Positions 17,474 to 43,877 of a DNA stretch of 64,000 bases are shown here, one piece after another. A model generated the notes under the pieces. It saw only the letters and a program-made list of their open reading frames with translations, had not been told where the DNA came from and searched no databases. Where the stretch lies: the NCBI GenBank assembly GCA_902577425.1, contig CACGZD010000001.1, forward strand, positions 638,414-702,413, in the 5' to 3' direction. The DNA is from an uncultured Alphaproteobacteria bacterium. GTDB lineage: Bacteria; Pseudomonadota; Alphaproteobacteria; HIMB59; GCA-002718135. Numbering within the stretch: position 1 is the stretch's first letter; each line of letters begins with the position of its first letter. The translations under genes were made by a program, and so were the position numbers.

Positions 17474-17495
17474 TCGGAACACTTACGGACCACTT
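17474..17495. repeat. Tandem 11-bp arm-type repeat (tRNA-distal side of Arg fragment 1)
   Basis: TCGGAACACTTACGGACCACTT is 17/22 identical to the Ser-module motif TCGGCGCACATACGGCGCACTT. An inverted half (TGTTCCG) lies 17 bp upstream. Confidence 0.72.
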
Positions 17496-17557
17496 CGTAT
17501 TCAAAAATTACTTTTTACGTATCAACTTTTCTTACTATTGGTGCTAAGACAGTTGTA

Positions 17558-18718
17558 ATGAAAAAAGAAACTGGCTACTGGTTGTTTAATTGTAATCCTG
17601 CAATATGGGATATTAAATCAAGGCTTCAAAGTAAAATTACAAAGGAAGATTGGGGAATTCCTAATAATAGAGTTAAACAATTTAAAAAAGGACAACTAGG
17701 ATTTATCAGAGTCGCGTTAGACACAAGACCTAAGAGACTTGTAAATAAAAAACTATTATCTGGTTTTTATGCTTTAGTAGAAATTGTAGACGAACCTTTT
17801 TATGGAAAAACAAAAAATCCTAAATTGTTTTTTAAGCCTACCAAATATACCCAAAAAGTTAAAAATGTTGAATTAAAAACACATTGGAGAGTTCCTATAA
17901 ATATTACAGAAAGTTTTTTAAACTCACCAATACTTATTTCAGATTTAAAAAATACTGAATTTAATTTTGATAAAGGAGTATTTCAACCAGGACAAGGAAT
18001 TTCAGTTAGACCAATAGAAAGAAAATCTTTTTTTGAACTTCTTAAAATGACTGGCAAAAAAGATAAATTATGGATTGAAGACATTAAGGAGGCGTTTAAT
18101 AGTCTTGGAAGAGAAGCGTCTTTAAAGGAAATTTATTCTGAAGTAAAAAAAATAAGAAAAAATATAAATCTCAATCAAGACTGGCAAGCAATTGTTCGAA
18201 GAGAAATAGGAGAAAATTCTTCAGATACAAAATATTGGAAAAAAAAATCTGATTTATTTTATAACGTATATGGACTTGGCGAAGGGTATTGGGGTTTAAG
18301 AAGTTTCGCAAATGATCCCAAAATAATTAAAAATTACAAAAAACAATTTGAAAAAAAAGTAAATAACAATTTAAAACTATCTGCTGCAGAACTTAAAAAA
18401 AGAGCAAACAAAAGTTTAAAAGTTAAAGTAAAAAATACTCAAACCAAATATTTTAATAGAGATGATTATGTTGAGGCTTATGTAAAAAAAATTGCAAAAG
18501 GTAAATGTGATTTATGTGAAAAAAATGCGCCTTTTAAAAAGAAAAAAACAAATGAGCCGTACCTAGAGTGTCATCATGTTAAGTGGCTTTCTAAAGGGGG
18601 AAAAGATATTATTGAAAATGCAGTAGCTCTTTGCCCCAATTGTCATAGAAAAATGCACTCATTAAGCCTTAACAAAGATATTAAAAAACTATTTGAAAAA
18701 ATAAATACTCGGCAATAA
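17558..18718 (+). CDS. EVE-domain + winged-helix + McrA-like HNH endonuclease (putative modification-dependent, type IV restriction enzyme)
   Basis: N-terminal YWLFNCNPAIWD...WGI...KGQLGF (EVE-like), central WIEDIKEAFNSLGREASLKEIY...GYWGLR (wHTH-like), and C-terminal CDLC...EPYLECHHVKWLSKGGKDIIENAVALCPNCHRKMH (McrA-type HNH). Confidence 0.8.
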   Translation: MKKETGYWLFNCNPAIWDIKSRLQSKITKEDWGIPNNRVKQFKKGQLGFIRVALDTRPKRLVNKKLLSGFYALVEIVDEPFYGKTKNPKLFFKPTKYTQKVKNVELKTHWRVPINITESFLNSPILISDLKNTEFNFDKGVFQPGQGISVRPIERKSFFELLKMTGKKDKLWIEDIKEAFNSLGREASLKEIYSEVKKIRKNINLNQDWQAIVRREIGENSSDTKYWKKKSDLFYNVYGLGEGYWGLRSFANDPKIIKNYKKQFEKKVNNNLKLSAAELKKRANKSLKVKVKNTQTKYFNRDDYVEAYVKKIAKGKCDLCEKNAPFKKKKTNEPYLECHHVKWLSKGGKDIIENAVALCPNCHRKMHSLSLNKDIKKLFEKINTRQ

Positions 18719-18729
18719 TTTTTTATATC

Positions 18730-18753
18730 CCAGTGCAAATTCGTAACACTTCA
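18730..18753. repeat. Orphan arm-type repeat between the HNH and YdjM-like genes
   Basis: GTGCAAATTCGTAACACTTCA (18733-53) is 18/21 identical to 19985-20005; no tRNA fragment follows it. Confidence 0.65.
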
Positions 18754-18754
18754 C

Positions 18755-19957
18755 TCAGAAATTCAAAGCAAAAATTAGATAGGGTGTGTCATAAGCTGGG
18801 CAATTAGTTACAATTTCAATTGATTTTTTTGCAAGTTTGTACTTACTAACTTCCCCATTACACATGCTTTTATTATCTTCTTTGTGATCAATTATTTTGA
18901 TTTTATTCTCTATAAAAGAAAAAACTGAATAAGTATTATGTCTAATATGAGCTGAACCTTGAGGTTGAGAGAAAGTAGAAATTAAATAATTATTTTCATT
19001 AAGTTTTAATAAAATTTCAGTATCCAATTGCTCTATCTCATTTTGCCAATCAATCTCATATATTGATTTATTAACAATATTATAAAGTTTAGACCTATCA
19101 AAGGATTTTAAGTCAATTTCTTGGTTATTGCTAAAGCAACAATCATAATTGTGAACCATATATGTTATAATTTTAGGATCAAAATTATTAATAGTTATGT
19201 TTTGGTTTGGACCAATCGTAGAATAATCTTTAAATTTTTGATAATCGTTAAATAATGTTACTCCATAATAAACGAAAAACAATACTATTAATAAAATTGA
19301 TAAATAAAAAATAAATTTAAAAAATTTGTAAACACCAGAAAAAAAACTATTTACTTTACGCTTTGCTATTTGAAGATTTTGAGTTGATTTTTCAGTGACA
19401 CTACTCAACTTTGGGAAATAGCTAAATATTTTTTTTTCACCAAAATAATCTACTGTTAATACTGCTATTGGTATCATTCGTATATCTTCTCCTTTAAGAA
19501 AGTATAAAAGAATACATATTCCCGCAGTAAGGTAGAAGTGATATGGATAAAACGAAAAACTATTTTCTTTAATTATTTTTAAGCAAAAATAACCACACGC
19601 TATTACATTTGCAAATATCCAAATAGGACTAAGCGGACCTATCCAACCAATAAATGGAACGCTGATTAAAGCATAACCTTTCCATGATTTGGGAAACAGA
19701 TCTGCAGATAGGTGGACCATAAATGCGAAATATATTGCAGCAATAATTAAAGGATATTGTTTTGAAGAGTATTTTTTTGAATAATAATCAATTAAAAAAG
19801 GTATAAAAATGCTGTGTGTTACAATTGAGCGATGAAGTAATAATTTTCCTGTAGCTAAATCCCAATCAGGTATACTTACAGTTACTAGTGCAATAAAAAA
19901 GAAAAATATACTTGAGCCAGTTTTTTTACCAAAGTTCTTTTCTAAATACTCAATCAT
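18755..19957 (-). CDS. YdjM-like membrane metal-dependent hydrolase with a C-terminal soluble domain
   Basis: IPDWD, HRSIVTHS and HLSADL motifs in a multi-TM N-terminal half, then a basic linker, one TM helix and a hydrophilic C-terminus. Confidence 0.65.
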   Translation of the reverse strand: MIEYLEKNFGKKTGSSIFFFFIALVTVSIPDWDLATGKLLLHRSIVTHSIFIPFLIDYYSKKYSSKQYPLIIAAIYFAFMVHLSADLFPKSWKGYALISVPFIGWIGPLSPIWIFANVIACGYFCLKIIKENSFSFYPYHFYLTAGICILLYFLKGEDIRMIPIAVLTVDYFGEKKIFSYFPKLSSVTEKSTQNLQIAKRKVNSFFSGVYKFFKFIFYLSILLIVLFFVYYGVTLFNDYQKFKDYSTIGPNQNITINNFDPKIITYMVHNYDCCFSNNQEIDLKSFDRSKLYNIVNKSIYEIDWQNEIEQLDTEILLKLNENNYLISTFSQPQGSAHIRHNTYSVFSFIENKIKIIDHKEDNKSMCNGEVSKYKLAKKSIEIVTNCPAYDTPYLIFALNF

Positions 19958-19981
19958 TTTATAAACTTATAACTAAACTTT

Positions 19982-20005
19982 GTGGTGCAAATTTGGAACA
20001 CTACA
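19982..20005. repeat. Tandem 11-bp arm-type repeat (upstream of Arg fragment 2)
   Basis: TGGTGCAAATT-TGGAACACTAC shows an 11-bp period. The second CAC (19999) is 86 bp before the anticodon loop at 20085. Confidence 0.68.
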
Positions 20006-20084
20006 GAATCATTTTTTTTCACTTAACGAATGATTTTTCCCGTAATTCCGTATATGTAATACAATCTGGTGCACGGGACACGGA

Positions 20085-20129
20085 CTACGGATCTGGAGGT
20101 TAGGAATTCGACTCTTCTCGGGCGCGCCA
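20085..20129 (+). pseudogene. 3' half of tRNA-Arg(ACG) (att-like fragment 2), decaying
   Basis: Same as 17383-17427 except that G53 is changed to A (AGGAA-TTCG), breaking the invariant G53-C61 pair; no 5' half. Confidence 0.9.
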
Positions 20130-20175
20130 TATAAACTGTCAAAAACTTAATTTTAAAAAATTATTAATTAAAAAA

Positions 20176-20197
20176 AAGTGTGCCGTTTGTGCACTTT
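20176..20197. repeat. Arm-type repeat after Arg fragment 2 (largely inverted)
   Basis: The reverse complement of 20176-94 is GTGCACAAACGGCACACTT, 16/19 identical to GCGCACATACGGCGCACTT. The following ~35 bp resemble those after 17495. Confidence 0.68.
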
Positions 20198-20243
20198 CGT
20201 ATTTAGAAATACTATTTTGGATTCAACATTCCTCTTAGAAGAA

Positions 20244-20990
20244 TTATTTTATTTTTTTATTAAAAACCACAGGCATTTTGCCTTTCCACTGAATCCAAAG
20301 GTTAGGTTGTTCAATGCACTCACACATAAAATGAGCGACGTTTGCTCGCGTAGTAGTAAGTCCATTAAAAATAGTTTGAGGAGGTGTCGTTACTACTTCA
20401 TAGTTCGAAATTTCAGCATTAATGAGTCCGTCTGGTCGGACCACTACCCATTCAATAAATTCATTTTCTGAACCAATGTTATCTCTCAAAAAAGCAGCGG
20501 AGGCTTCATTATCATAATGTGGTGGTATGAGGTTGCGTAACAGAGATAAAATAACTTTTTCGCTCGTGGTTACTCTCTCACCAGGATTGCGATTACCTAC
20601 GGTGTTCATTAATAAAAATTTTGTTTTATCTAGAGAATGAGTAGCCTTAATAGCTACACATAGACGTTTGACTGCTTCCAGAACAAGCGTTCTGGGTTTG
20701 CCAAATATTCCTTTAAAACTCATTGTGTGACCTAAGCAGGAAGCCACAGCAGCACAACCTTTTACGGCTTCCAACATTTGTTCGTCACTCAGATCAAGCA
20801 AACTTGCTTTTATGATTTTAAGCTTTGGATTTTCAAGAAGTTCTTGTGGAAATTTATCGAGTGACCGAACAATAATTCGAAGGTTATAGCCGCGGACAAG
20901 AAGCTGTTTTACAAGAGGGAAACCAGTATTTCCTGTGGCTCCAACCACTAAAACTGTTTTAAAATTTGAATTGGTTTTTTCGGTTGTCAT
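20244..20990 (-). CDS. NAD(P)H-binding atypical SDR (BVR-B/flavin reductase-like)
   Basis: VLVVGATGNTG, VASCLG, WVVVRPDGL and TTRANVAHFM motifs. Confidence 0.85.
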   Translation of the reverse strand: MTTEKTNSNFKTVLVVGATGNTGFPLVKQLLVRGYNLRIIVRSLDKFPQELLENPKLKIIKASLLDLSDEQMLEAVKGCAAVASCLGHTMSFKGIFGKPRTLVLEAVKRLCVAIKATHSLDKTKFLLMNTVGNRNPGERVTTSEKVILSLLRNLIPPHYDNEASAAFLRDNIGSENEFIEWVVVRPDGLINAEISNYEVVTTPPQTIFNGLTTTRANVAHFMCECIEQPNLWIQWKGKMPVVFNKKIK

Positions 20991-21006
20991 TTACCGGGCA
21001 TATAGA

Positions 21007-28705: not shown

Positions 28706-28795
28706 GGAGAGATGTGAGAGCGGTTTAATCAGCACGCTTGGAAAGCGTGTATAGTGGAAACACTATCGAGGGTTCGAATCCCTCTCTCTCCGCCA
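28706..28795 (+). tRNA. tRNA-Ser(GGA), intact, 90 nt
   Basis: Acceptor GGAGAGA/TCTCTCC, D stem TGA/TCA, anticodon arm CACGC-TTGGAAA-GCGTG, long variable arm TAGTG-GAAA-CACTA, T arm GAGGG-TTCGAAT-CCCTC, and encoded GCCA. Confidence 0.96.
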
Positions 28796-28839
28796 TAAAT
28801 TAGGATTTTCCTTTAACGATTTTTCAACAAAAAAGTGTT

Positions 28840-28861
28840 TCGACGCACATACGGCGCACTT
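28840..28861. repeat. Tandem 11-bp arm-type repeat, GGCG type
   Basis: TCGACGCACATACGGCGCACTT is 21/22 identical to 30760-81; the second CAC is 62 bp after the tRNA CCA. Confidence 0.85.
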
Positions 28862-28899
28862 ACGAGCCTATTTTTCATCTTAATCCCGTATCGGTATTG

Positions 28900-28918
28900 T
28901 GGTAGGATAATCGTGATG
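28900..28918 (+). promoter_or_regulatory. Putative extended -10 promoter with leaderless start
   Basis: TG-G-TAGGAT-N7-ATG, 18/19 identical to 43015-43033; no Shine-Dalgarno sequence. Confidence 0.5.
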
Positions 28919-29344: not shown

Positions 29345-29351
29345 AAATTAT

Positions 29352-30781: not shown

Positions 30782-30825
30782 ACACATTCTTTTTCATCTT
30801 TGAAAAGTATGTTATTTATATTTTC

Positions 30826-30849: not shown

Positions 30850-30862
30850 TTATGGTTATCTT

Positions 30863-32185: not shown

Positions 32186-32188
32186 AAG

Positions 32189-33283: not shown

Positions 33284-33332
33284 AATTATTTAAATTTTAG
33301 TTACTCACAATTAGGCAAATTTTAAATTGATT

Positions 33333-33370
33333 TATTCAATATTTTGAATATTATTCATTAAAAATGAATA
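33333..33370. promoter_or_regulatory. Candidate operator array in a divergent promoter
   Basis: TATTCA/TGAATA half-sites at 33333, 33345, 33352 and 33365, including the palindrome TGAATA-T-TATTCA; a similar array lies at 37526-37563. Confidence 0.4.
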
Positions 33371-33389
33371 AAATATAATTTTTCCTAAA

Positions 33390-34358
33390 ATGTCAATAGA
33401 TATAGAAAAACGTCTAGCAAGATTTAATGATCTTATTCCCAGTAAGATCCCTTTTGTAGAAGGTAAGTTAAAAGGTCATCAGGATAGAAAAAATTATTCA
33501 ATTGTCGGACCAGGGGTAAGTGAAGATTCTAAGCAAAATGTAAAAATTGCTGAAGCTCACGGATTTAATATCGGGGCTGTAAGTGCTGCCCCAATGAATG
33601 GTTCAGGATTGCATAGTCATACAACTGCCGAGGTGTTTATTATACATGCTGGTTCATGGCGTTTTTATTGGGGAGTAAATGGCGAAGAGGGCGAAGTAAT
33701 TCTTAGCAAAGGAGATGTAGCATCATTTCCTACTAATATGTTTAGAGGATTTCAAAATGTTAGTGATGAAGAAGCCCTTATGTTTGTTGCGCTAGGTGAA
33801 GATGATCCAGGTGTTATTACGTGGACTCCAAGATTATTGAAAGAAGCAAATGAATCAGGAATGTTATTAATGGAAGATCGTTCATTGGTTGATCTTAATA
33901 AGCAAAAAGTGCCTGAGGGTAAGTTAGTAACAAAACCTCTTGAAGATAAGGAACTGGAAAGCTTTGACCATTATACCTCAGATGAAATTGAGAAATTTGT
34001 TATTCGTTATAATGATAATAAAAATTATGTTGATGATGAACATTATAATTCAAATTCAATAATTAATTATTTAGATTCATTTGAAATACATGGAAAAAAA
34101 ATTGAACCTAAAATTCCTCACAAAACAGGCTTTGGATTGACTCTATTAAAAGGTGTTTCAGCCCATATGCATGCGTATTCTATTAATTCATCTGAAGTTT
34201 ATAATTGTTTAAATGGCAAGTGGGAAGTCACATGTAATGATGAGAAAGTTATTCTCGAACCACGTGATAGTTTCTCTGCTCCAAAGAATTCTACAAGAAG
34301 TGTAAAACAGATAAGCAATGATGAGGGTAGTTTATTTATCGTTAGGCAATCAAATTAA
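33390..34358 (+). CDS. Bicupin-domain protein
   Basis: GSGLHSHTTAEVFIIHAGSWRF cupin motif 1, GDVASFPTNMFRGF motif 2, and a second degenerate cupin domain. Confidence 0.8.
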   Translation: MSIDIEKRLARFNDLIPSKIPFVEGKLKGHQDRKNYSIVGPGVSEDSKQNVKIAEAHGFNIGAVSAAPMNGSGLHSHTTAEVFIIHAGSWRFYWGVNGEEGEVILSKGDVASFPTNMFRGFQNVSDEEALMFVALGEDDPGVITWTPRLLKEANESGMLLMEDRSLVDLNKQKVPEGKLVTKPLEDKELESFDHYTSDEIEKFVIRYNDNKNYVDDEHYNSNSIINYLDSFEIHGKKIEPKIPHKTGFGLTLLKGVSAHMHAYSINSSEVYNCLNGKWEVTCNDEKVILEPRDSFSAPKNSTRSVKQISNDEGSLFIVRQSN

Positions 34359-34370
34359 TTTATTAAAAAT

Positions 34371-35342
34371 ATGAAGGGTTTTGATAAAAAATTTAAAGAT
34401 CTGCCTGATTATATTCTTAAGATTACCTATCAGATTTGGGAGGATAAAGATGTTGAGTCAATTAGGGAGTATTATGCAAAGGGAATTCCGGTAAGATCTC
34501 CTGATGGAGTTATCTACGGACCTGATAAAGTAGTAAAAGCAACTTATGCTACGCTTGACGAATTTCCAGATCGGCAACTTCTTGGAGAGGATGTTATTTT
34601 TATAGGTAATGAAAATGATGGTTATTTATCTTCGCATCGTATTTTAACAAAAGCGACTCATCTAAATGATGGAGTTTACGGAAAAGCCACAGGAATTAAA
34701 ATATCTTACAGAGTTATAGCAGATTGTGCTTGTAAAAATAATCAAGTTTATGATGAATGGTTGGTTAGAGATCAGGGAGCAATAGTCAGACAGTTAAATT
34801 TAGATCCAAAAACCTATGCTAAAACATTAATTGATAAGCAAGGCGGTGTAACAAAATGCTCTATACCTTTTAATCAAAATACACCTCTAGATTTAAAATA
34901 TACCCAGTTAAGTTTGCCTAAAAATAACACTGGTTATGAATATGCTGAAATATTAAAAACTATATTTCAAAAGGATTTGGATAGTATTGAAAAATTTTAT
35001 GACAGATCTATTAATCAAGAACAACCTAGTGGTCTTAAAGCGTATGGAGTAGACGAGGTTAAATCTTTTTGGTCATCAATTTTTTCTTCCTTTCCTGAAG
35101 CGACATTTAAAATTGAACATGTCAGTTATCTGGATGAGCCTGCAGCATATAGAAAAGCAGCGATAAGATGGTCTTTAAATGGTATCCACTCTGGTCCTGG
35201 GTATTTTGGCAATCCTAGTCAAACAGAAGTTTATGTAATGGGAATTTCTCATGCAGAATTTGGTCCCAGAGGTATAAAAAATGAGTGGGTTTTATTTGAT
35301 GAAACTGCAATATGGAAACAAATTTTAATGAAAACTGGTTAA
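34371..35342 (+). CDS. Tandem SnoaL-like / ester cyclase protein
   Basis: TLDEFPDRQLLGEDVI, DEWLVRDQGAI, SFPEATFKIEH, RWSL.G.HSG.G.FG and EWVLFDE motifs. Confidence 0.75.
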   Translation: MKGFDKKFKDLPDYILKITYQIWEDKDVESIREYYAKGIPVRSPDGVIYGPDKVVKATYATLDEFPDRQLLGEDVIFIGNENDGYLSSHRILTKATHLNDGVYGKATGIKISYRVIADCACKNNQVYDEWLVRDQGAIVRQLNLDPKTYAKTLIDKQGGVTKCSIPFNQNTPLDLKYTQLSLPKNNTGYEYAEILKTIFQKDLDSIEKFYDRSINQEQPSGLKAYGVDEVKSFWSSIFSSFPEATFKIEHVSYLDEPAAYRKAAIRWSLNGIHSGPGYFGNPSQTEVYVMGISHAEFGPRGIKNEWVLFDETAIWKQILMKTG

Positions 35343-35355
35343 GGATAGATAAACA

Positions 35356-36486
35356 TTGAATACGAAAATTTTAACAACCCATGTTGGAAGTTTACCACGT
35401 TCAAAAACATTATCTGAATTTCTTTTTGCTAAAGATAAGGGAGAAAGTTTTAATTTAAATGAGTTTGATGAAGTAGTATCTCAAAATGTGCATGAAATTG
35501 TAAAAAAACAATTAGATATTGGTATTGATTTTATCAGTGATGGGGAAATGAGTAAAATCAGTTATGCTACCTATGTCAAAGAGAGAATAAATGGCTTTTC
35601 TGGAGAAAGTGAAAGAAGAGCTCCTGCTGATTTGGATGCATTTCCCGAATATAAAGAAAAAATTGCCAAAAGTGGTGGAACGCCTACTTATACCCGTCCC
35701 TGTTGTACTGGAGAGCTGTCACTTAAAAAAAATAGTGACCTTTTAAAAGATATAAATAATTTTACATCTGCTCTTAAATCAAACAACCATAAAAACGGCT
35801 TTATGAACTCTGCTTCACCAGGGGTTATAAATGTTTTTTTACCAAACAAATATTATAAAAATGATGATGAGTATCTTGAAAAACTATCTTCAATAATGTC
35901 TGATGAATATGAAACAATTACATCAAAAAATTTATATTTACAAATTGATTGTCCTGATTTGGCTTTAGCTAGGCATATGAATTTCAAAGATATGGATGAA
36001 AAAAGTTTTTTACATCGCGCTGAAAAACAAATTGAAGCTCTCAATGCTTCTCTCGCAGCAGTTCCACAGGATCAAATTAGAATTCATATTTGCTGGGGTA
36101 ATTATGAAGGGCCTCATACTTTTGATGTTGCTTTGGAAAAAATTTTACCAATTGTTCTAAAAGCTAAAACTAAATACCTGTTAATTGAGTCTTCAAATCC
36201 AAGACATGCTCATGAATGGAAGGTGTTTGAGAATATTAAATTACCAAAAGATAAAGTTATTGTTCCAGGGGTTATTGATTCGACATCAAATTTTGTTGAA
36301 CATCCTGAAGTTGTTTCAGATCGACTTAGACAATTTGCAAGTGTTGTTCCAAAAGATCAGATTATGGCAGGTACAGATTGTGGTTTTAGTACATTTGCTG
36401 GATTTGGAAAAGTTGACGAGAAAATTTGTTATGAAAAATTAGGCTCCCTAGTTAAAGGTGCTAAAATAGCCTCAAATATAATTTGA
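35356..36486 (+). CDS. Cobalamin-independent methionine synthase II family / epoxyalkane:CoM transferase-like Zn enzyme
   Basis: TTHVGSLPR, SDGE, QIDCPDL, HICWGNY, IE..NPRH and TDCGF motifs (Zn ligands H-x-C...E...C); single barrel. Confidence 0.85.
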   Translation: MNTKILTTHVGSLPRSKTLSEFLFAKDKGESFNLNEFDEVVSQNVHEIVKKQLDIGIDFISDGEMSKISYATYVKERINGFSGESERRAPADLDAFPEYKEKIAKSGGTPTYTRPCCTGELSLKKNSDLLKDINNFTSALKSNNHKNGFMNSASPGVINVFLPNKYYKNDDEYLEKLSSIMSDEYETITSKNLYLQIDCPDLALARHMNFKDMDEKSFLHRAEKQIEALNASLAAVPQDQIRIHICWGNYEGPHTFDVALEKILPIVLKAKTKYLLIESSNPRHAHEWKVFENIKLPKDKVIVPGVIDSTSNFVEHPEVVSDRLRQFASVVPKDQIMAGTDCGFSTFAGFGKVDEKICYEKLGSLVKGAKIASNII

Positions 36487-36499
36487 ATTGTTAATTTTT

Positions 36500-37501
36500 T
36501 TATCTAGTTGTATTTCGATAAATAAATTTGCCCTGTATTACATGATTAACAGGCTCAAATTCTGGATCCTTTATATTATCATCTATAATTTGGGTAACAA
36601 GCTTTGACATTTGTCTAATAGGTTGTCTAATTGTTGTTAAATTATATGAATACCAATTTGCTGTTGATATGTCATCATATCCAATTACCTCTATTTCTTT
36701 TGGGATATTTAATTTTGTATTTTCTTTAATATAATCAATGCAACCAAAAGCCATAGTATCGTCAGCACAAAACAATGCTGTAATATTTTTTTTTAAAAGT
36801 TTTTTTGCTGACTCGAAACCTCCTTCATATGTAAAATTTCCTTTTTCATGAAAAAATTTAATTTTGTTTAAATTTTTAAAATGGTTTTTAAAACCTTTAC
36901 ATCTTTCATTACTTACAAAGGATCCAGTTGGTCCTTCAACCATTCCTATATTAATATGTCCATTGGTAATGAAATGTTCTGCCGCTGCTTCTCCCCCATA
37001 TCTGTGATCACAAGCTACAGAACTCAATGTGGGTATTTTCCAATTTCTATTAAAAGCGATAAGTTGAATTTGTTTGGATAAACAATTTTCTACAAATGCA
37101 TCCGTAGGCTTTGTAGCCGAAACAATCGCAACTAATCTCTCTTTTAGGTAAGGTTGAATTAAGTTGTTATCAAGTTCTTCACCATCATCGGTTGTAATTA
37201 AAAGTATCCTGTACCCACTCATTCGAAGAGCCTCATGTAATTCAGTTAGGACTTCAGGATAATATCTATTGGTGATATAGGGTAATATTACGCCCACTAG
37301 CCCACCATCCACTGATGAAGAAAAAGAATGCTGAATAGTTTGATGTTTATAGCCCAATTTTTTAGCAGCTTCGATGACGCGTAATTTTGTCCGATTTGAG
37401 ATACTGGCTCCTTTGGTGAAGCACCGAGAGACTGCTGACTGGGATACACCAGCTAATGTGGCCACATTCTGGGATGTTGGATTCTTTAATTTAGTTTTCA
37501 T
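36500..37501 (-). CDS. LacI-family transcriptional regulator
   Basis: VATLAGVSQSAVSR HTH, followed by a periplasmic-binding-fold domain (ALFCADD, VIGYDD, LTTIRQP). Confidence 0.9.
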   Translation of the reverse strand: MKTKLKNPTSQNVATLAGVSQSAVSRCFTKGASISNRTKLRVIEAAKKLGYKHQTIQHSFSSSVDGGLVGVILPYITNRYYPEVLTELHEALRMSGYRILLITTDDGEELDNNLIQPYLKERLVAIVSATKPTDAFVENCLSKQIQLIAFNRNWKIPTLSSVACDHRYGGEAAAEHFITNGHINIGMVEGPTGSFVSNERCKGFKNHFKNLNKIKFFHEKGNFTYEGGFESAKKLLKKNITALFCADDTMAFGCIDYIKENTKLNIPKEIEVIGYDDISTANWYSYNLTTIRQPIRQMSKLVTQIIDDNIKDPEFEPVNHVIQGKFIYRNTTR

Positions 37502-37525
37502 TTATGCCTTTATCCACCGAAATAT

Positions 37526-37563
37526 TATTCATTACATTGCATATTTATTCAAAACAATGCAAT
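37526..37563. promoter_or_regulatory. Candidate operator array between lacI and the SBP gene
   Basis: TATTCA (37526), TGCATA (37538), TATTCA (37546) and TGCAAT (37558); spacing parallels 33333-33370. Confidence 0.4.
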
Positions 37564-37641
37564 ATATTTATTATAAATATTTATAATATTAATTCTCTTA
37601 ATATAACAATTTATTTTAAGGGTAATTAATAAGGAGGAAAA

Positions 37642-38883
37642 ATGTTATTTAAAAAACTAATATTAGTTGGATTTATTTCCCTATTTTTCAGCTCATCTTT
37701 GTATGCAGCTGATTGTGGACCGAATGGGCAATCAATCCGAATTCTAGCAAGTGATTTTCCAGCAATTCACGCAATAGCAAATTCTGCTGAAAGTAATTGT
37801 GCAGGATCTGCTTCTGAATTCAATCGAAATCATACTACCGAAGCACGTCAAATAATGAATGCTGCTCAAACACCAAATCCAGCAGAGTATACTTCAGTTA
37901 TTGTAGCTAACTCTACCCTAGTTCAATTAATGAACGATGGACTTGTTAGACCATTAGATGATTTAGTTGAAAAATATGGTGGTCACTTAAAATCTAACCA
38001 ACTGATAACTATTGATGGAAAAATAATGGCAATAGCGTTTATGGCAAATTCTCAGCACATGTATTATAGAACAGATATTTTAGAAAAATCTGGGGTTGAT
38101 GGAATACCAGCAACTTATGATGAAGTAATATCTGCTGCTGAAAAGATACGTGCAGCTGGTATCATGGAGCATCCACTTGTAATGAATCTCAAAGTCGGAT
38201 GGAATGTTGGTGAAGTATTTAACACTATATACCTAGCACATGGTGGAGAATTCTTTAAGCCTGGTAGTGCTGAAGCATCTATTAATAATGCCAAAGGTGT
38301 TGCTGCTCTAGAAACAATGAAAGCTCTTGTAGAGTATGCTCACCCTGATCATTTAACGCAGGCATCTGATGATACGCAAGGATTATGGGAAGCTGGTCAA
38401 GCGGCAATTGGCTTTATGTGGGGTTCTCGTGGAGGAGTTATACTAGATAATGAAGGTTCTTCAGCTGAAGTGACTTCAAATACTGTTTTATCTGCAGCTC
38501 CAACTGTTACTGGTGGCTCAATACCAGGAGCAACTCTATGGTGGGATGGAATAACTATAGCTACTAACGTGTCTGACAGTGAAGCAGAAGCAACGTTTGC
38601 AGCACTTGTAAGTGGTATGACTTCAGAAATGGTTGCTGCTAATAATGATGATGCAATTTGGTTAATTGATGGTTTTAAACCTGGTCCAGCTGCAGCAGGA
38701 GTTTCTGCAACTGCTCAAGGCGGTGCTAAATCTTACCCGATGTTTGCTCAAATGGGATTATTGCACAATGCATTAGGTGCAGAGCTAGTTGATTTTTTAA
38801 AGGGATCTGAGAGCGCTGAACAAGCACTTAGTGATGTAGAGGCTGTTTACGAAACAGCTGCTAAAGACGCAGGTTATCTGTAG
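37642..38883 (+). CDS. Carbohydrate ABC transporter substrate-binding protein (family 1)
   Basis: Signal peptide, YYRTDILEKSG.D.IPATYDE motif, and AAGGAGG RBS. Confidence 0.88.
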   Translation: MLFKKLILVGFISLFFSSSLYAADCGPNGQSIRILASDFPAIHAIANSAESNCAGSASEFNRNHTTEARQIMNAAQTPNPAEYTSVIVANSTLVQLMNDGLVRPLDDLVEKYGGHLKSNQLITIDGKIMAIAFMANSQHMYYRTDILEKSGVDGIPATYDEVISAAEKIRAAGIMEHPLVMNLKVGWNVGEVFNTIYLAHGGEFFKPGSAEASINNAKGVAALETMKALVEYAHPDHLTQASDDTQGLWEAGQAAIGFMWGSRGGVILDNEGSSAEVTSNTVLSAAPTVTGGSIPGATLWWDGITIATNVSDSEAEATFAALVSGMTSEMVAANNDDAIWLIDGFKPGPAAAGVSATAQGGAKSYPMFAQMGLLHNALGAELVDFLKGSESAEQALSDVEAVYETAAKDAGYL

Positions 38884-38905
38884 TCAATATAAATAAATCA
38901 GTAAA

Positions 38906-38933
38906 AAGGGGTTTTCAAATTTGAAAACCCCTT
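38906..38933 (+). terminator. Perfect 28-bp palindrome after the SBP gene (hairpin)
   Basis: AAGGGGTTTTCAAATTTGAAAACCCCTT equals its own reverse complement. Confidence 0.7.
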
Positions 38934-38963
38934 GTATCTTTCTATGTAATTTAAAATCGCATA

Positions 38964-39998
38964 ATGAAGCACAGCACATTCTTATTATTTTCTCTTCCTT
39001 CATTAAGTGTAATGTTTTTATTTATTGCAATACCTATAGTTTCTGTTTTTATTCAATCTCTGCATATTGAGCATAAACAAGTAATAATTGTTACAGAAAA
39101 TTGTGATCCTTTTGGATGTGAGACAACAACAGCTGTGGATACTGAAGCTTCCGCAAAGTTAAAAGAAAAAGCACCTCTTGGTAAATTTAATGGATTTAAA
39201 ACATATTCAAACAGAATGCATTTTGCATTTGATGAAGTAGGAGAAGCTTGGAAGAGCTCGGATAGTTTTACAGTTTTTACTAAAAAATTATATAATTACC
39301 CCCTATATAGAGCGCTCAGTTTCACTCTTACTTACACCTTCGTAGTTACTCCTTTTGTCTTATTTCTTGGTTTTTTAGTTGCCGTTGGAGTTAATAATCT
39401 TCCAAAGATGTTTAAAGGTCCAACAATTTTTGCATCTCTTCTTCCAATGATAGTTACACCTCTTGTTGGTTCATTGATACTTTTCTGGATGGTTGACGGT
39501 GATGGTGTGATTGGGGCTACACTCCAAAAAATATTTAATGATAATTCTCTTAGCTTGAAAGCATCACCTGTGCTTACCTGGATTATGTTGATGGTATACG
39601 GTATTTGGCATTTGATGCCTTTTAGTTTTATTGTTTTTTATGCAGGTCTTCAAACGGTTCCTCAAGAAACAATAGAGGCGGCAACAATAGATGGCGCATC
39701 AAAATTTCAAAGAATACGCCATGTTGTTATTCCTCATTTAATGCCACTTGCTATTTTCATCACTTTAATACTTTTGATGGATAATTTTAGAGTTTTTGAA
39801 CCAATCATAGGTTTTAGAGCAGAAGCGCACGCCACCTCAATATCGTGGTTAATATGGAATCATTTGCGAGAAAGTGCTTACCCTCTCTATAACGCCGCAG
39901 GTGCTACATCTATGGTTACTATTTTTGGTGTAGCAATTTTACTCTTGCCCGTACTAATTCGAACATGGCGAGATTTTAAAGAAAAAAATAAAGGTTAG
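38964..39998 (+). CDS. Carbohydrate ABC transporter permease (MalF-like)
   Basis: EAATIDGASKFQRIRHV EAA motif; multiple TM segments. Confidence 0.9.
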   Translation: MKHSTFLLFSLPSLSVMFLFIAIPIVSVFIQSLHIEHKQVIIVTENCDPFGCETTTAVDTEASAKLKEKAPLGKFNGFKTYSNRMHFAFDEVGEAWKSSDSFTVFTKKLYNYPLYRALSFTLTYTFVVTPFVLFLGFLVAVGVNNLPKMFKGPTIFASLLPMIVTPLVGSLILFWMVDGDGVIGATLQKIFNDNSLSLKASPVLTWIMLMVYGIWHLMPFSFIVFYAGLQTVPQETIEAATIDGASKFQRIRHVVIPHLMPLAIFITLILLMDNFRVFEPIIGFRAEAHATSISWLIWNHLRESAYPLYNAAGATSMVTIFGVAILLLPVLIRTWRDFKEKNKG

Positions 39999-40004
39999 GA
40001 ATTT

Positions 40005-40886
40005 GTGAATACAAAAATTGAAAATAAATTAACCCCAGTTCGTATTATTGCTTTTATATTTGTGGCTCTGTGGTTGGTTATTGCTATGTTTCCTTTTATT
40101 TGGACATTGTGGGGATCTTTCAAAGTACAAGCTGATTTTTTTTCAAAAGCTGATTGGTTAAATGCAATATTTGGCTTTCATACTGAAAAACAAACAGGCG
40201 GTTTTTTTACTATGGATGGATATTATGGCTCTTGGATTGAAGAAGAATTTTGGCGTGCCGTTATTAATACAAGCATAGTAGTATTTTTTACAGTTTTAAT
40301 TTCTCTTACTTTTGGAACTTTAGGTGGTTATGCTCTTGCAAGGTCTACTTATCGCTACGCCTTCTGGATTTTAATGGCAGGTCTTATCTTTCGTGCGATG
40401 CCTCATATGACTTTGATTTCAGGATATCTTCAACCTTTTTTTGCATGGAATGTTTGGGGAATTTTGCCTACAACAATAATTGTGCTTGTTGCAATTAATC
40501 AGCCTTTTACTCTGTGGATGCTACATTCATTTTTTTTAAACATACCAAAAGATTTAGATGAAAGCGCTATGTGCGATGGTTGTAATAGATTTCAAGCATT
40601 TAGATATGTGATCATTCCTATAATGTGGCCAGGGGTAATCACTACTGGATTATTTAGCTTCCTTCTTGCTTACAATGATTTTACAGTTACATCCATGTTG
40701 CTTTCAGATGAAAATGAAACAATGATTCCAGCAATTGCAAGTTTTCTAGGTACTGTCCAAGAAGAAGGTAAAGTAATGTATGCTGTAGCAGCCGTTGTTT
40801 CAGCAACTGCTCCATTATTCTTTTTTGTACTGTTTTTTCAAAGACAGATTGTTAGTGGATTAACAGCTGGAGCAGTAAAAGGTTAA
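40005..40886 (+). CDS. Carbohydrate ABC transporter permease (MalG-like)
   Basis: IPKDLDESAMCDGC EAA motif and FQRQIVSGLTAGAVKG C-terminus; GTG start. Confidence 0.9.
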   Translation: MNTKIENKLTPVRIIAFIFVALWLVIAMFPFIWTLWGSFKVQADFFSKADWLNAIFGFHTEKQTGGFFTMDGYYGSWIEEEFWRAVINTSIVVFFTVLISLTFGTLGGYALARSTYRYAFWILMAGLIFRAMPHMTLISGYLQPFFAWNVWGILPTTIIVLVAINQPFTLWMLHSFFLNIPKDLDESAMCDGCNRFQAFRYVIIPIMWPGVITTGLFSFLLAYNDFTVTSMLLSDENETMIPAIASFLGTVQEEGKVMYAVAAVVSATAPLFFFVLFFQRQIVSGLTAGAVKG

Positions 40887-40891
40887 AAGTA

Positions 40892-41965
40892 ATGAAATCA
40901 GAGCAATTAAAAAAATACTTTGAAGATTATCAAATAGCTACTCAAAATTTTAATAAAAATTCAATAAATAATTCTCTAACTAAATACTTCTCAGAACATT
41001 CTGTGTTTCAATTCTGTTATCCCTTTGGAACGTTTAATGGATTAGATAATTTTTTATCTAATTGTATCAATCCTCTTTTAGAAAGTATTCCAGATCTTGA
41101 AAGAAGAGATATGATTGTTATGGCAGGCACAACACCTGAAGATAAACACTGGGTAGGTACTATGGGTAATTATATGGGAACATTTTTAAAATCATTTTTA
41201 GATATTCCACCAACTGGTAATTTAGTTCATATGCGTTATCATGAGTTTTTCCAAATCGAAAATAATCAGATTATAGAAATGCAATCAATATGGGATCTAC
41301 CTGAACTGATGATCCAGGCCAATGCATGGCCAATGAGTCCTCAGCTAGGATCTTTTTTATGTACACCATCTCCGATGACCGGAGACGGTTTAAAAATAAA
41401 AGGCGATGGATCAAAAAATTTTGATCTTGTGATTAATATGCTTCAAGACATGGTTTTACACCCTAGTAATCCAGATCCACAAGTTATGAATTTAGATAAG
41501 TATTGGCACCCCAGATTTAATTGGTATGGACCAGCTGGAATTGGAACTGGAAGAGGTATAGCAGGATTTCGCCATTGGCATCAAATACCCTTCTTACGTG
41601 CAATGCCGGATAGAAAGGGAGGTTCATCAAATGATAGCTTAAAAAATGAGGGATTGAAGGATATGCAAACTCATTGGATATATGAAGGAGATTATGTCTG
41701 TGAAACTGGTTGGCCAAATATGCGATCTACAATATCACAAGATGGATGGATGGGTATTGCTCCTTCAAACCAGATTATAGAAATGCGGAGTTTAGATTTT
41801 TGGAGAGTTGAAAATAATCTTATAAGGGAGAATTGGGTTTTAGTAGATCTTCTGGATGTTTATCAGCAAATTGGCGTTAATGTTTTTGATAGAATAAAAG
41901 AATTTAACAAAGCAAGAAATGTTGGTGATATTAACATTTCTCAAGGACTTGATTTAATTAAATAA
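40892..41965 (+). CDS. Tandem SnoaL-like / ester cyclase protein
   Basis: IPDLERRD, WYGPAGIGTGRG, HQIPF and RSLDFWR...IRENWV motifs; paralog of 32189-33283. Confidence 0.75.
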   Translation: MKSEQLKKYFEDYQIATQNFNKNSINNSLTKYFSEHSVFQFCYPFGTFNGLDNFLSNCINPLLESIPDLERRDMIVMAGTTPEDKHWVGTMGNYMGTFLKSFLDIPPTGNLVHMRYHEFFQIENNQIIEMQSIWDLPELMIQANAWPMSPQLGSFLCTPSPMTGDGLKIKGDGSKNFDLVINMLQDMVLHPSNPDPQVMNLDKYWHPRFNWYGPAGIGTGRGIAGFRHWHQIPFLRAMPDRKGGSSNDSLKNEGLKDMQTHWIYEGDYVCETGWPNMRSTISQDGWMGIAPSNQIIEMRSLDFWRVENNLIRENWVLVDLLDVYQQIGVNVFDRIKEFNKARNVGDINISQGLDLIK

Positions 41966-41982
41966 ATATTGATATAGAAGAA

Positions 41983-42750
41983 ATGTATTTACAAAAATTT
42001 GAAGTCAAAAACAAAACTGCATTAGTAACGGGAGCAGGAAAAGGTTTGGGAAAAGCATGTGCTATTGCTTTGGCTGAGGCAGGAGCCAATCTCATTATAT
42101 TAAGTCGTACCAAAACTGACTTAACAAAAGTTGAAAAACAAATAATAAAATTAAATAGAAAATGTCGATCAATCGTATGTGATGTAACAAATTATGAAGA
42201 TGTAAAAAAAACTTTTTCCTCCATATCTAAGTTAGATATTCTTGTTAATAATGCTGGAACTAATAGACCTGAATATTTTACAAAAATTAAAAAAAAAGAT
42301 ATGGATGATGTTGTTGATTTGAATATTAAAGCCGCATTTCATATTGCACAATTGGCTTCAAAAATAATGCTAAGATCCAAAAATCGAAAGAAAGTTGGGG
42401 CTTCCATAATAAATATGTCTTCTCAATTAGGAAAAGTAGGAGCTCCACGCCGAAGTGTTTACAATATGACGAAATTTGGAATTGAAGGATTAACCAAAGG
42501 AATGGCTGTGGATTTAGCTAAACATAATATTCGTGTCAATTCAGTTTGTCCCACATTTGTTAAAACGCCAATGGTTGAAAAGTTTTTTAAAGATAAAGAA
42601 TTTATGAAATCTGTATTAAAAAACATTCCTTTAGGCAGAATAGGTTCAGAAAGCGATATTGCTACAGCTGTAGTGTATCTAGCCTCCAATGCATCATCAA
42701 TGATTACTGGCTCATCATTAGTAATAGATGGTGGTTGGACAGCAAAATAA
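41983..42750 (+). CDS. SDR oxidoreductase, HpsO-like
   Basis: TGAGKGLG, NNAGTNRP, YNMTK, CPTFVKTP and DGGWTA motifs. Confidence 0.8.
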   Translation: MYLQKFEVKNKTALVTGAGKGLGKACAIALAEAGANLIILSRTKTDLTKVEKQIIKLNRKCRSIVCDVTNYEDVKKTFSSISKLDILVNNAGTNRPEYFTKIKKKDMDDVVDLNIKAAFHIAQLASKIMLRSKNRKKVGASIINMSSQLGKVGAPRRSVYNMTKFGIEGLTKGMAVDLAKHNIRVNSVCPTFVKTPMVEKFFKDKEFMKSVLKNIPLGRIGSESDIATAVVYLASNASSMITGSSLVIDGGWTAK

Positions 42751-42760
42751 TTAAAATTTC

Positions 42761-42840
42761 TCGGCGCACATACGGCGCACTTAGACACCCGGTATTTACA
42801 TTTTCACGTTTAATTTTTCCTAGAAACTCTAGACATTGTA
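42761..42840. repeat. Right-end arm of Ser module 2 (GGCG tandem repeat plus conserved spacer)
   Basis: The 22-bp motif starts 10 bp after the SDR stop; the second CAC is 63 bp before the tRNA fragment. Confidence 0.88.
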
Positions 42841-42912
42841 TTTAATCAGCACGCTTGGAAAGCGTGTATAGTGGCAACACTATCGAGGGTTCGAATCCCT
42901 CTCTCTCCGCCA
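42841..42912 (+). pseudogene. 72-bp 3' copy of tRNA-Ser(GGA)
   Basis: TTTAATCAGC...CCGCCA; variable arm TAGTG-GCAA-CACTA. Confidence 0.92.
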
Positions 42913-42956
42913 TAAATTAAAATTTTTCTATAACGATATTTCAATAAATATGTGTT

Positions 42957-42978
42957 TTGTCTCACATAGGTCTCACTC
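42957..42978. repeat. Tandem 11-bp arm-type repeat, GTCT type
   Basis: TTGTCTCACATAGGTCTCACTC is 21/22 identical to 30564-85; the second CAC is 62 bp after CCA. Confidence 0.85.
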
Positions 42979-43014
42979 ACGAGCCTATTTTTGATCAACA
43001 TTTCTTTTCATTAA

Positions 43015-43033
43015 TGGTAGGATAATTGTGATG
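43015..43033 (+). promoter_or_regulatory. Putative extended -10 promoter with leaderless start
   Basis: TG-G-TAGGAT-N7-ATG, matching 28900-28918. Confidence 0.5.
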
Positions 43034-43792
43034 TCAAAATTACTCCTCTTTTTTGTATTAGTTTTTTATTCATTTTCAAATTCATATGCTAAACCACCCT
43101 ATTGGGGTACAATATTTGATTTTCCTGATATTATTAATTCTAACGATCCAACAACATTTCAAGAATTAATTTATGTTGGTCAAGATCATCGTGAAATGTT
43201 TGATCGAAGAAAAGGAGGGCGTTGGATAACAAAAAAAGTTTTTTTGTTTAATGCAATTTACGAAGATAGATCAATTGAAATTCAAGTTAATCCCGAGTTT
43301 AATAATTATGAAAATGCTCTTGAAGAAGCTCTTACATATTCTAAAGTAATTGGACGGCTTCCAAATTTTTTACTTACTAATGTTAAAACCATTTGGATTC
43401 ACAAAGGAAATAATGACTATGGGGGTGGCAATCAAAACCTACTTATTCATATCGGGAGGAGCGTAGAATATATTTCAAAAAAAATCCTTGAAGAGACATT
43501 TATTCATGAAGCTGGTCATACTTCGCTTGATTGGGATTGGGGAGGTGTAATTAATAAATCTCAATGGTACAAAGCTGCAAAAAAAGATAAAGAATATATT
43601 TCTGAATACGCAAAACAATATCCAAAAAGTGAAGATGTTGCTGAAAGTATAGTAGCATGGATTGCTGTGCGGTATCGCTTAGATAGAATTTCTAATGGAA
43701 ATGCAGAAATAATTTTAAAAACTATACCTAATCGATTAAAATTCTTTGATGAACAAAATTTTGATATGTATCCATTGGTGCCTCGTGAATAA
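43031..43792 (+). CDS. Secreted zinc-metallopeptidase-like protein
   Basis: Signal peptide MSKLLLFFVLVFYSFSNSYA, HEAGH (HExxH) motif, and downstream SEYA...EDVAES. Confidence 0.65.
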   Translation: MSKLLLFFVLVFYSFSNSYAKPPYWGTIFDFPDIINSNDPTTFQELIYVGQDHREMFDRRKGGRWITKKVFLFNAIYEDRSIEIQVNPEFNNYENALEEALTYSKVIGRLPNFLLTNVKTIWIHKGNNDYGGGNQNLLIHIGRSVEYISKKILEETFIHEAGHTSLDWDWGGVINKSQWYKAAKKDKEYISEYAKQYPKSEDVAESIVAWIAVRYRLDRISNGNAEIILKTIPNRLKFFDEQNFDMYPLVPRE

Positions 43793-43797
43793 TTTTA

Positions 43798-43877
43798 TGG
43801 TAGCACATAGGTTGCACTAGCGCACCCTGTATTTACATTTTCATGTTTAATTTTTCCTAGAAACCCTACACTTTGTT
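43798..43877. repeat. Right-end arm of Ser module 3
   Basis: TGGTAGCACATAGGTTGCACTA begins 5 bp after the stop codon; the second CAC is 63 bp before the tRNA fragment. Confidence 0.82.

Follow-up and report, generated by a model that had tools for sequence, protein, structure and literature searches.

Tandem 11-bp units at fixed geometry flank cargo cassettes at tRNA sequences of a SAR11-like genome and are candidate arm-type integrase sites

What do short tandem repeats mark when they stand at a nearly constant distance from tRNA 3' ends, and what might recognize them? This question is raised by a 64,000-nucleotide stretch of contig CACGZD010000001.1 (hereafter the window, numbered from its first letter), in which a reading made from the sequence alone had listed ten sites of ~22 bp, each composed of two 11-bp units around GGNNCACWT, and had assigned them to the ends of gene cassettes arrayed at two different tRNAs. 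We recovered all ten sites at the positions listed, and our analysis confirms that the occurrence of this tandem motif at fixed geometry is real and non-random. Its probable role, for which we argue below, is that of an arm-type site for a tyrosine integrase. The window has a G+C content of ~30%, and the public sequences nearest to it come from ocean metagenomes and from single-cell genomes of the AG-4xx series, labeled uncultured Alphaproteobacteria. These matches, together with composition and gene content, lead us to infer that the host is a SAR11-like marine alphaproteobacterium.

One array starts at the sole tRNA gene that ARAGORN and Rfam detect in the window, an intact tRNA-Ser(GGA) on the plus strand at 28706..28795 (Rfam RF00005, 53.2 bits), which would carry the bacterial attachment site attB. 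Behind it, on the same strand, lie three 3' fragments of the gene, at 30644..30715 (fragment 1, running from TTTAATCAG in the D-loop to the CCA), 42841..42912 (fragment 2) and 43878..43949 (fragment 3, ending in CCACCA). They delimit cassettes E1 (28796..30715, 1.9 kb), E2 (30716..42912, 12.2 kb) and E3 (42913..43949, 1.0 kb), with fragments 1 and 2 as the cores of the E1/E2 and E2/E3 junctions and fragment 3 as the putative terminal attR, after which unrelated motif-free DNA follows. The fragments repeat the gene sequence from TTTAATCAG to CCA plus TAAATTA in identical form, this core being duplicated at both ends of the inserts. The stem of the variable arm differs from fragment to fragment with compensatory changes, as if each fragment had once completed the 3' end of a working gene.

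Each of these cassettes carries a tandem pair near either end, all on the plus strand, and we refer to the left pair as the P' arm and to the right pair as the P arm. In E1 the pairs are CGACGCACATA / CGGCGCACTTA at 28841..28863 and TGTCTCACATA / TGTCTCACTCG at 30565..30587. In E2 they are CGGCGCACATA / CGGCGCACTTA at 30761..30783 and, at 42762..42784, units with the same GGCGCAC variant as the P' arm of E2, and in E3 they are TGTCTCACATA / GGTCTCACTCA at 42958..42980 and GGTAGCACATA / GGTTGCACTAG at 43799..43821. The geometry described before holds almost to the nucleotide. The second CAC lies 62, 62 and 62 nt past the CCA of tRNA-Ser (28795) and of the first two Ser fragments (30715, 42912), 64 and 63 nt past the CCA of the Arg-like fragments of the other array (17427, 20129), and 63 nt ahead of the start of every Ser fragment (30644, 42841, 43878). 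Arm-to-arm distances across the internal junctions are 196 and 196 bp, as had been stated, and the third is 194 bp rather than the 193 bp given earlier.

When the four Ser copies are aligned, the internal junctions are conserved over ~218 nt, a span that opens with the first unit of the upstream pair and closes with the second unit of the downstream one, in the order motif, ~63 nt, 3' fragment of the tRNA, ~46 nt, motif. The DNA outside the array, left of the intact tRNA-Ser and right of the last fragment, is unrelated and motif-free. An intact gene followed by three 3' fragments, with motif-free outer flanks, is what integration by recombination between attP and attB predicts, and the pattern as a whole is the one expected from repeated integration of attP-bearing circles (P arm, 3' part of the tRNA, P' arm) into the tRNA gene. 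The suggestion that each internal junction is a complete attP-like site (~218 bp) is borne out, and conservation stops exactly at the outer edges of both motifs.

The second array has no such gene at its head. ARAGORN and Rfam found no intact tRNA-Arg gene in the window, and what had been taken for a second tRNA consists of two 45-nt 5'-truncated repeats on the plus strand that start exactly at the anticodon loop CU-ACG-GA. The first (17383..17427) abuts the stop codon of lepA (17381), and the second (20085..20129, repeat family D4) forms the core of the junction between cassettes A (17428..20129, 2.7 kb) and B (20130..21004, end approximate). The fragment matches positions 31-71 of the Rfam tRNA model at 17.5 bits, under the gathering score, and this match appeared only when the scanned stretch began at the fragment, a 3-kb stretch giving none. 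To speak of two different tRNAs is therefore an overstatement: the Ser array has a genuine tRNA-Ser(GGA) gene, and we read the Arg site as a tRNA-like half-site behind lepA, apparently a tRNA-Arg relic.

The tandem sites of this array are less regular. The P' arm of cassette A, CGGAACACTTA / CGGACCACTTC at 17475..17497 on the plus strand, is identical to a site that precedes an integrase remnant in another locus described below (L141). The sites at 18730, 19982 and 20176 are degenerate, with one good unit apiece. That at 18730..18752 (plus strand) lies between the two convergent genes of cassette A and is probably a relic P arm from a former two-cassette arrangement. The site at 19982..20004 (plus strand), with the good unit GGAACACTA, is the P-arm site of cassette A and stands 86 nt before the second Arg fragment. 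Both share GTGCAAATTYGKAACACT, a likeness that we read directly from the site sequences, MAFFT having left the two unaligned. The P'-arm site of cassette B (20176..20198) is of mixed orientation, with an inverted unit AAGTGTGCC and a direct unit TTGTGCACTTT, and it also occurs directly after the lepA fragment in a metagenome contig (L003). At the right end of cassette B no attachment site is recognizable.

The pairing of the units is what sets the sites apart from background. A single unit GGNNCACWT has 12 matches in the window against 6.4 expected, a number reached by 3 of 100 shuffled sequences, and its enrichment is unclear. The tandem form CACWT-N6-CACT has 7 matches against 0.66 expected (0 of 100 shuffles reach 7), and all seven are on the plus strand at cassette junctions. 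A position weight matrix built from the seven strong sites gave no further match of >=12 bits in the window (0.38 under the null), a test that is circular for its own seven source sites.

Is the motif also kept in other genomes? Further junctions, retrieved with a P-arm word free of the motif, differ widely in spacer and cargo. Wherever a downstream tandem pair was found (20 of 20 junctions, from 12 sources), the second CAC lies 61-63 nt past the CCA. The unit variants in other genomes include GGCTACAC twice, GGTCACAC/GGTAACAC, GGCACAC twice and GGTCTCAC twice, and one locus (L124) has a single unit where another (L129) has two. For 10 P' arms from the window and other genomes, none of them chosen by way of the motif it carries, a motif position holds 1.13 bits of information, against 0.59 for a spacer position and 0.37 for one in the downstream cargo, so that the motif is kept while the spacer diverges. 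Repeated arm sequences, unlike the core and at a fixed distance from it, are present on both arms. The tRNA-independent probe TTCGGNNCACNTACGGNNCACTT has 21 matches in public metagenomes, 12 of which lie 46-47 nt past the 3' end of a SAR11 tRNA-Ser or tRNA-Arg(ACG), and a thirteenth belongs to a Ser P arm. Directly behind CACTT, six or more distinct cargos begin. With 12 of 21 metagenome matches next to tRNA 3' ends, the motif is not equally common away from tRNA fragments.

A candidate for the protein that recognizes the units comes from related loci. In L141 the Arg-type site TTCGGAACACTTACGGACCACTT, identical to that of the window, is followed 24 nt on by an ORF beginning MATIFKRKWKNKTTYRC, an integrase stub of only 56 aa behind the identical Arg(ACG) site. 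A word-indexed search assigned 135 short database proteins (46-146 aa) to the family of this peptide, their shortness being due to contig ends or a broken gene. A profile of the short proteins finds full-length relatives of 325-350 aa, of which the closest (P0122, 337 aa, E 1e-44) matches PF00589 at E 5e-25. Because the full-length relatives carry PF00589, the short proteins are the N-terminal parts of tyrosine integrases. The profile search returned 5433 representative clusters at E<=0.001, and the view of the sequence-only reading that these elements have no protein marker was thus mistaken: a tyrosine integrase family (PF00589, ~337 aa) accompanies them. Among database proteins P0001-P0120, copies in assembled genomes and longer contigs are almost always N-terminal stubs of 56-143 aa with a frameshifted tail. 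To judge from these sequences, decay of the integrase gene seems to proceed from the 3' side, with its start and the P' arm being retained.

A PF00589 integrase next to a tandem site is lacking in the window and present in L158 (5901-6927), L141 and L151-L165. The order at these loci is uniform, with a tRNA end, a spacer of 20-46 nt, two 11-bp units, a YTTTC-AGAAAG inverted repeat with GAG(T)G, and the ATG, and the integrase start codon lies 22-35 nt past the two tandem units. The inverted repeat and GAG(T)G, seen just upstream of the integrase ATG in L141 and L151-L165 and lacking in integrase-less cassettes, may be an operator or a translation signal. The targets are the ends of tRNA-Met, Gly, Phe, Arg(TCT) and Arg(ACG), and a disrupted tRNA-Leu-like stretch. 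At the tRNA-Arg(ACG) fragment of L141 the units are TTCGGAACACTT / ACGGACCACTT and the integrase N-terminus reads MATIFKRKWKNK; at tRNA-Met in the first element of L158 they are GAGGACCACTT twice, with MSSIYKRKHKHG; at the truncated tRNA of L159, GGTTGCGCAT / AGGTTGCAATT with MASIIKRKRN. For tRNA-Gly(GCC) we find ACGCTCCACTT / ACGATCCAATA with MATIQKRKYLNK in L151, L152, L164 and L165, and TACGCTCCATT / TACGATCCAGT with MASIIKRKYNTK in L160, while the tRNA-Gly fragment of L161-163 has TACGCACCACG / TACGCACCATT with MANILKRKFKTQ. The remaining pairs are TTCGGATAATA / TACGGATAATT with MAYILKQKWKNK at tRNA-Arg(TCT) (L156), TTCGGATATCA / TTCGGATAACT with MAYILKRKWKNK at tRNA-Phe (L157), and GACGCCCCTAC / GACGCCCTACA with MAYIRRRKFRFK at the disrupted tRNA-Leu(CAA)-like stretch (L153, L154). 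The second element of L158 has a tRNA-Met fragment, a 46-nt spacer, the Ser-type variant GGTTGCACATAGGTTGCACTT (units GGTTGCACAT / AGGTTGCACTT) and then a near-complete integrase that corresponds to aa 4-336 of P0122 and is split over two frames on a long-read contig at 2x coverage.

The sequence of the units changes with the integrase subfamily, and like N-termini pair with like units, as in L156 and L157 and in the second element of L158 and L159. The first of these couples is alike in units and N-terminus despite different target tRNAs. The tRNA-Gly element of L151 also has a P arm, ACGCTCCTCTT/ACGCTCCAATT, 65 nt before the Gly fragment, whose unit type is that of its own P' arm. This pairing of units with N-termini, together with the matching arms of L151, is what recognition of arm-type sites by the integrase N-terminal domain predicts.

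Do the cassettes move? A metagenome contig with an identical LepA (L003) reads lepA, fragment, and then the DNA that follows the second fragment of the window, cassette A being cleanly absent, so that a single fragment-to-fragment unit is exactly what sets this contig apart from the window. Cassette A is thus polymorphic for presence and absence. Two further contigs with the same LepA (L002, L004) have a different right flank, and another two with an identical LepA (L008, L009) are without window positions 17397-21004. The latter read lepA, TCTACGGATCTGGAG, ~11 further nt and then a 2OG-oxygenase gene region, and represent either an empty pseudo-attB that mimics the anticodon arm only or a deletion product. 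Cassette E2 recurs at 98.4-99.8% identity in several single-cell genomes and metagenomes (L129 at 1-2300 and 3700-8000; L128, L124, L130, L137, L147). The L129 copy is 99.8% identical to that of the window, yet the ABC-transporter operon next to it on the chromosome (window 52902-56507) reaches only 75.8%, and this difference is a signature of recent horizontal transfer between diverged lineages. The neighbors of E2 vary as well: in L150 it adjoins the intact tRNA, and in L124, L128 and L129 other cassettes come after it.

How, then, might the arrays have formed, and what are the units for? We consider it probable that the tandem units are arm-type sites for the N-terminal domain of a heterobivalent tyrosine integrase. 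For this reading, already put forward from the sequence, the circumstantial support is strong in that integrases start 22-35 nt past the units after tRNA ends in related loci, and the sites of the window are predicted ones. On this model both arrays of cargo cassettes would have arisen through site-specific recombination directed at the anticodon-arm region of tRNA sequences; the genuine tRNA-Ser(GGA) gene would have been the target for one array, and the tRNA-Arg(ACG)-like half-site behind lepA for the other. Each cassette would keep a minimal attachment site, the P' arm on its left and the P arm on its right, such that an internal junction (P arm, tRNA 3' fragment, P' arm) would amount to a complete attP of ~218 bp whose units, at the outer edges of the arms, would be bound by the integrase N-domain. 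Crossover probably takes place in the anticodon arm, given that this stem-loop is complete in the Gly and Met fragments and that the Arg fragment begins with the anticodon loop. The integrase would be encoded outside the window by a member of the family that occupies the same position in related genomes, where its gene is usually decayed to an N-terminal stub. Supplied in trans, it could still excise and insert the cassettes, and recombination between neighboring junctions would free a circle consisting of cargo and one attP.

Several observations weigh against this arm-type model. No recombinase of any kind was found in the window, either by Pfam on 60 ORFs, among them all but six of the largest, or by tblastn with three integrases; those six match core genes in size and order (a 1506-aa ORF, infC, rplT, pheS, dnaX and ybaB). 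None of the loci examined, including the single-cell loci L124-L129, has an integrase beside a tRNA-Ser(GGA) junction. That closely related integrases serve the Arg and Ser arrays, as the sequence-only reading proposed, is an unproven suggestion from the similarity of the motif. The spacing is constant from the CCA and not from the presumed anticodon-loop crossover, which lies ~14 nt farther away in tRNA-Ser, with its long variable arm, than in the Arg fragment. In E1 and E3 the unit variants differ between the cassette's own arms, and arms match in 4 of 6 elements examined. In view of the mismatched arms of E1 and E3, the N positions of the units are at most possible carriers of integrase specificity within the Ser family. 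Within a site, the N positions of one unit vary together with those of the other, which could reflect slippage or gene conversion rather than recognition.

The fold of the putative arm-binding domain and the search for a free form of the elements weigh in the same direction. An AlphaFold2 model of the integrase N-terminus (pLDDT 82.8) has strands at 4-11, 14-21 and 29-33, a helix at 36-52, a flexible linker and a helical domain. Foldseek found no match for the integrase model in the PDB at E<=0.001, the PDB sequence search returned no integrase (two eS1 ribosomal-protein chains at E ~0.07), and the NCBIfam search on the N-domain gave no match. The Pfam family Arm-DNA-bind_4 matched aa 24-52 in 4 of 14 proteins at E 0.0025-0.22, all below threshold. 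With no PDB match and Pfam below threshold, support from the modeled fold for an arm-binding domain is weak. A free or viral form of the elements was likewise not seen in IMG/VR, which holds neither the attP (0 matches for three probes, namely Ser P arm, Ser fragment and Arg fragment) nor a relative of the integrase N-terminal profile. A 14-base motif probe has 114 matches there, about chance level, among which only L026, a high-GC virus, is informative. GenBank phages match the tRNA part only. On these grounds we rejected the known pelagiphages as a source; those of the HTVC019P type use other tRNAs, with core sequences in mid-gene or at the 5' end. The high-GC contigs L026 (8899-9110), L140, L144 and L148 (GC 0.60-0.66) contain clusters of 11-bp-spaced GGTYCACTT repeats, which in L026 lie 42 nt past a tRNA fragment and adjoin a PF00589 integrase, and a similar CCACTT-type arm repeat thus exists far outside SAR11.

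An alternative that we regard as unlikely is that the motif is a passive relic. The ~220-bp junction would then have been copied along with the cassettes by homologous recombination between strains, the arrays would be fossils, and the units would now have no function. This would account for a window without an integrase and for assembled genomes in which almost every integrase copy is truncated. Simple recombination between the two 45-nt repeats could explain how cassette A was lost, and L124 has indeed lost one unit. However, functionless units would hardly be held at 61-63 nt while the spacer diverges almost completely, nor would conservation be expected to stop exactly at the motif edges in at least six unrelated cassettes, and the transfer of E2 is recent (99.8% identity with flanks at 76%).

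It is somewhat less probable again that the units bind an accessory protein, either an excisionase (recombination directionality factor) or a nucleoid-type bending protein, in place of the integrase. Lambda Xis does bind tandem direct repeats, X1, X1.5 and X2, and the units stand near the integrase start, where a regulator could act. Xis-type sites normally occupy one arm only, whereas direct units are present here on both arms. In addition, the loci seen have no small Xis-like gene with the integrase, and the sequence of the units tracks the integrase N-terminus.

That the units are a promoter or operator for the integrase or the first cargo gene we hold to be very improbable. The P' units do lie 22-35 nt upstream of the integrase ATG, beside the conserved YTTTC-AGAAAG inverted repeat, and upstream of the first ORF in E1 and E3. 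Yet the same units, in the same orientation, recur at the right ends of cassettes after stop codons (42761 after the stop at 42750), facing the tRNA fragment, and in E2 and cassette B the gene beside the P' arm points towards it. Arm-type sites that overlap an int promoter would moreover fit the arm-type model too. Least credible of all is the idea that the units are crossover sites of another recombinase with the tRNA fragment as a passenger: unique cargo does start and end exactly at the units, but the left end of the array lies within an intact tRNA gene and its right end is a tRNA fragment with no unit beyond it, and these array ends argue against crossover at the units. L003 differs by exactly one fragment-to-fragment unit, and the variable-arm stems of the Ser fragments carry compensatory changes. 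We also rejected integron cassettes, there being no IntI, attI or attC and the junctions being tRNA fragments with duplex arms.

If the arm-type model is right, cassettes A, E1, E2 and E3, which have attachment sites at both ends and lack a recombinase of their own, would be of the cis-mobilizable type. Judged by annotation, their genes have metabolic, transport, defense-like or unassigned functions. Cassette A encodes an HNH nuclease (17558-18718, plus strand) and a 400-aa protein without a Pfam family (18755-19957, minus strand), and it has no integrase by Pfam. The 386-aa nuclease (17558-18718) has a C-terminal HNH domain like that of type IV methyl-directed restriction enzymes (PADLOC PDLC03656, E 1e-21) and is probably anti-phage cargo. 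Cassette B consists of the P' arm and an NmrA-like NAD(P)-binding gene (20244-20990, minus strand). This gene (window 20230-20993) is 97% identical to an insert within the left end of E2 in the GOS contig L150, and the E2 of the window retains ~25 nt of the NmrA-like insert (30828-30853). Either the NmrA-like module is common to Arg-type and Ser-type elements or L150 is a chimeric Sanger contig.

In the Ser array, E1 has three small ORFs, one with a MORN repeat, and no integrase by Pfam. Pfam assigns to E2 a histidinol-dehydrogenase-like protein, three SnoaL-like proteins, a cupin, a Meth_synt_2 protein, a LacI regulator, sugar ABC transporter components and an SDR protein. The one ORF of E3 (254 aa) has no Pfam family, and its N-terminus is hydrophobic and resembles a signal peptide. 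A similar signal-peptide-like N-terminus is found in the first ORF of E1 (28835-29344) as in that of E3 (43028-43792), and the DNA right after their P' units is similar as well (ACGAGCCTATTTTT...GGTAGGATAAT). The left ends of the two cassettes may thus have a common ancestor. Beyond the last Ser fragment, the stretch up to the ABC operon (43950-52800) is of very low GC content (0.19-0.29) and holds sugar-nucleotide, glycosyltransferase, PhyH, NUDIX, SOUL and dehydrogenase genes. In L129 only ~500 bp separate the last fragment from the ABC operon, and in L128 PhyH and NUDIX genes follow directly after the last fragment. The low GC content and these layouts indicate that the flexible island runs on past the recognizable attachment sites. 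A bacterial small signal recognition particle RNA at 61512-61606 (Rfam RF00169, 53.3 bits) is ordinary and unrelated to the arrays.

Heterobivalent tyrosine integrases include lambda Int, HP1, mycobacteriophage L5 and Tn916 Int, the last with 11-bp DR2 repeats. By analogy, the junctions of the window resemble their attP in having a tRNA-shared core between arms of ~60-120 bp that carry short direct repeats unrelated to the core, and in a total length of ~220-240 bp. The integrase of the related loci likewise has a predicted extra N-terminal domain before the core-binding and catalytic domains, and its gene adjoins the P' arm. In contrast to those systems, every integrated unit in the window is without int, and on either arm the repeats form strict pairs with a period of 11 bp. 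The likeness to lambda and Tn916 is a textbook comparison, PDB sequence and fold searches having given no integrase match.

The arrays also invite comparison with other elements that are moved by recombinases encoded elsewhere. Cis-mobilizable elements (CIMEs) are flanked by att sites, lack recombination genes and accrete in tandem with integrative and conjugative elements (ICEs) in Streptococcus. The tandem cargo-only units of the window, lying between functional-looking att sites at a tRNA-type site, could similarly be mobilized in trans by a related integrase, although unlike CIMEs they have no ICE or conjugation genes with them and no helper element was found for the Ser site. As in integron arrays, cargo-only cassettes stand in tandem at one site and would be reshuffled by a tyrosine recombinase encoded elsewhere. 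Unlike integrons, they have no IntI, attI or attC hairpins, and their sites are duplex, attP-like and built around a tRNA fragment.

A closer parallel in layout is offered by the tycheposons of Prochlorococcus (Hackl et al., bioRxiv 10.1101/2020.12.28.424599), tyrosine-recombinase elements of a streamlined marine bacterium that use few tRNA genes as targets, carry metabolic and defense cargo, stack in tandem with partial tRNAs between them, and leave behind fragmented integrases and extra partial tRNAs. The Ser array agrees with them in its integration at a tRNA gene and in tandem stacking with partial tRNAs in between. It differs in its host, and neither a primase nor a helicase, and hence no replication module of that kind, was seen beside the integrases in the loci inspected; the comparison is one of layout and not of integrase sequence. 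The word 'arm' occurs 0 times in the tycheposon paper, which leaves arm sites unmentioned.

For SAR11 itself, four flexible islands with a partial repeat of the neighboring tRNA have been described and read as cassette insertion (Microbiome 2025, PMC11796062), and that study reports no canonical mobile elements and only one integrase. From Pelagibacter vesicles and virus-like particles, 585 mobilized regions with tyrosine recombinases, often near tRNAs, have been reported (Nat Commun 2025, PMC11876622), and a 2026 preprint proposes tRNA-anchored insertion for the main SAR11 hypervariable region. The cassettes of the window and those of PMC11796062 and PMC11876622 represent the same phenomenon in the same group of organisms. 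In the consulted parts of these three sources and of the tycheposon paper there is no description of arms, tandem units or their pairing with an integrase family, and the consulted parts of PMC11796062 and PMC11876622 likewise describe neither a fixed unit spacing nor a link between integrase-less cassettes and a specific integrase family.

The machinery proposed here, a tyrosine integrase with arm-type sites, is classical, and what is new is its pinning down in a SAR11-like host. The advance accordingly lies in SAR11 biology and in the annotation of metagenomes rather than in a new principle. SAR11 is the most abundant bacterial group of the ocean and is usually called nearly free of mobile elements, yet its flexible islands turn over fast. 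As a tentative explanation, one that we put forward with more doubt than confidence, SAR11 populations may keep an integron-like pool of integrase-less cassettes, each consisting of cargo and a minimal attP whose exact limits are the arm units. The units would be kept by selection because relatives that do carry an integrase, though rare and short-lived, excise such cassettes in trans and insert them at anticodon-arm sites of tRNAs, and this could be the main route by which metabolic and defense genes pass between diverged SAR11 lineages. The locus supplies a defined attachment site of ~218 bp, a short cargo-independent probe for cassette ends and an integrase family to pair with them. With these it becomes testable which cassettes remain mobilizable, which integrase moves them, and whether cargo-only cassettes move in trans.

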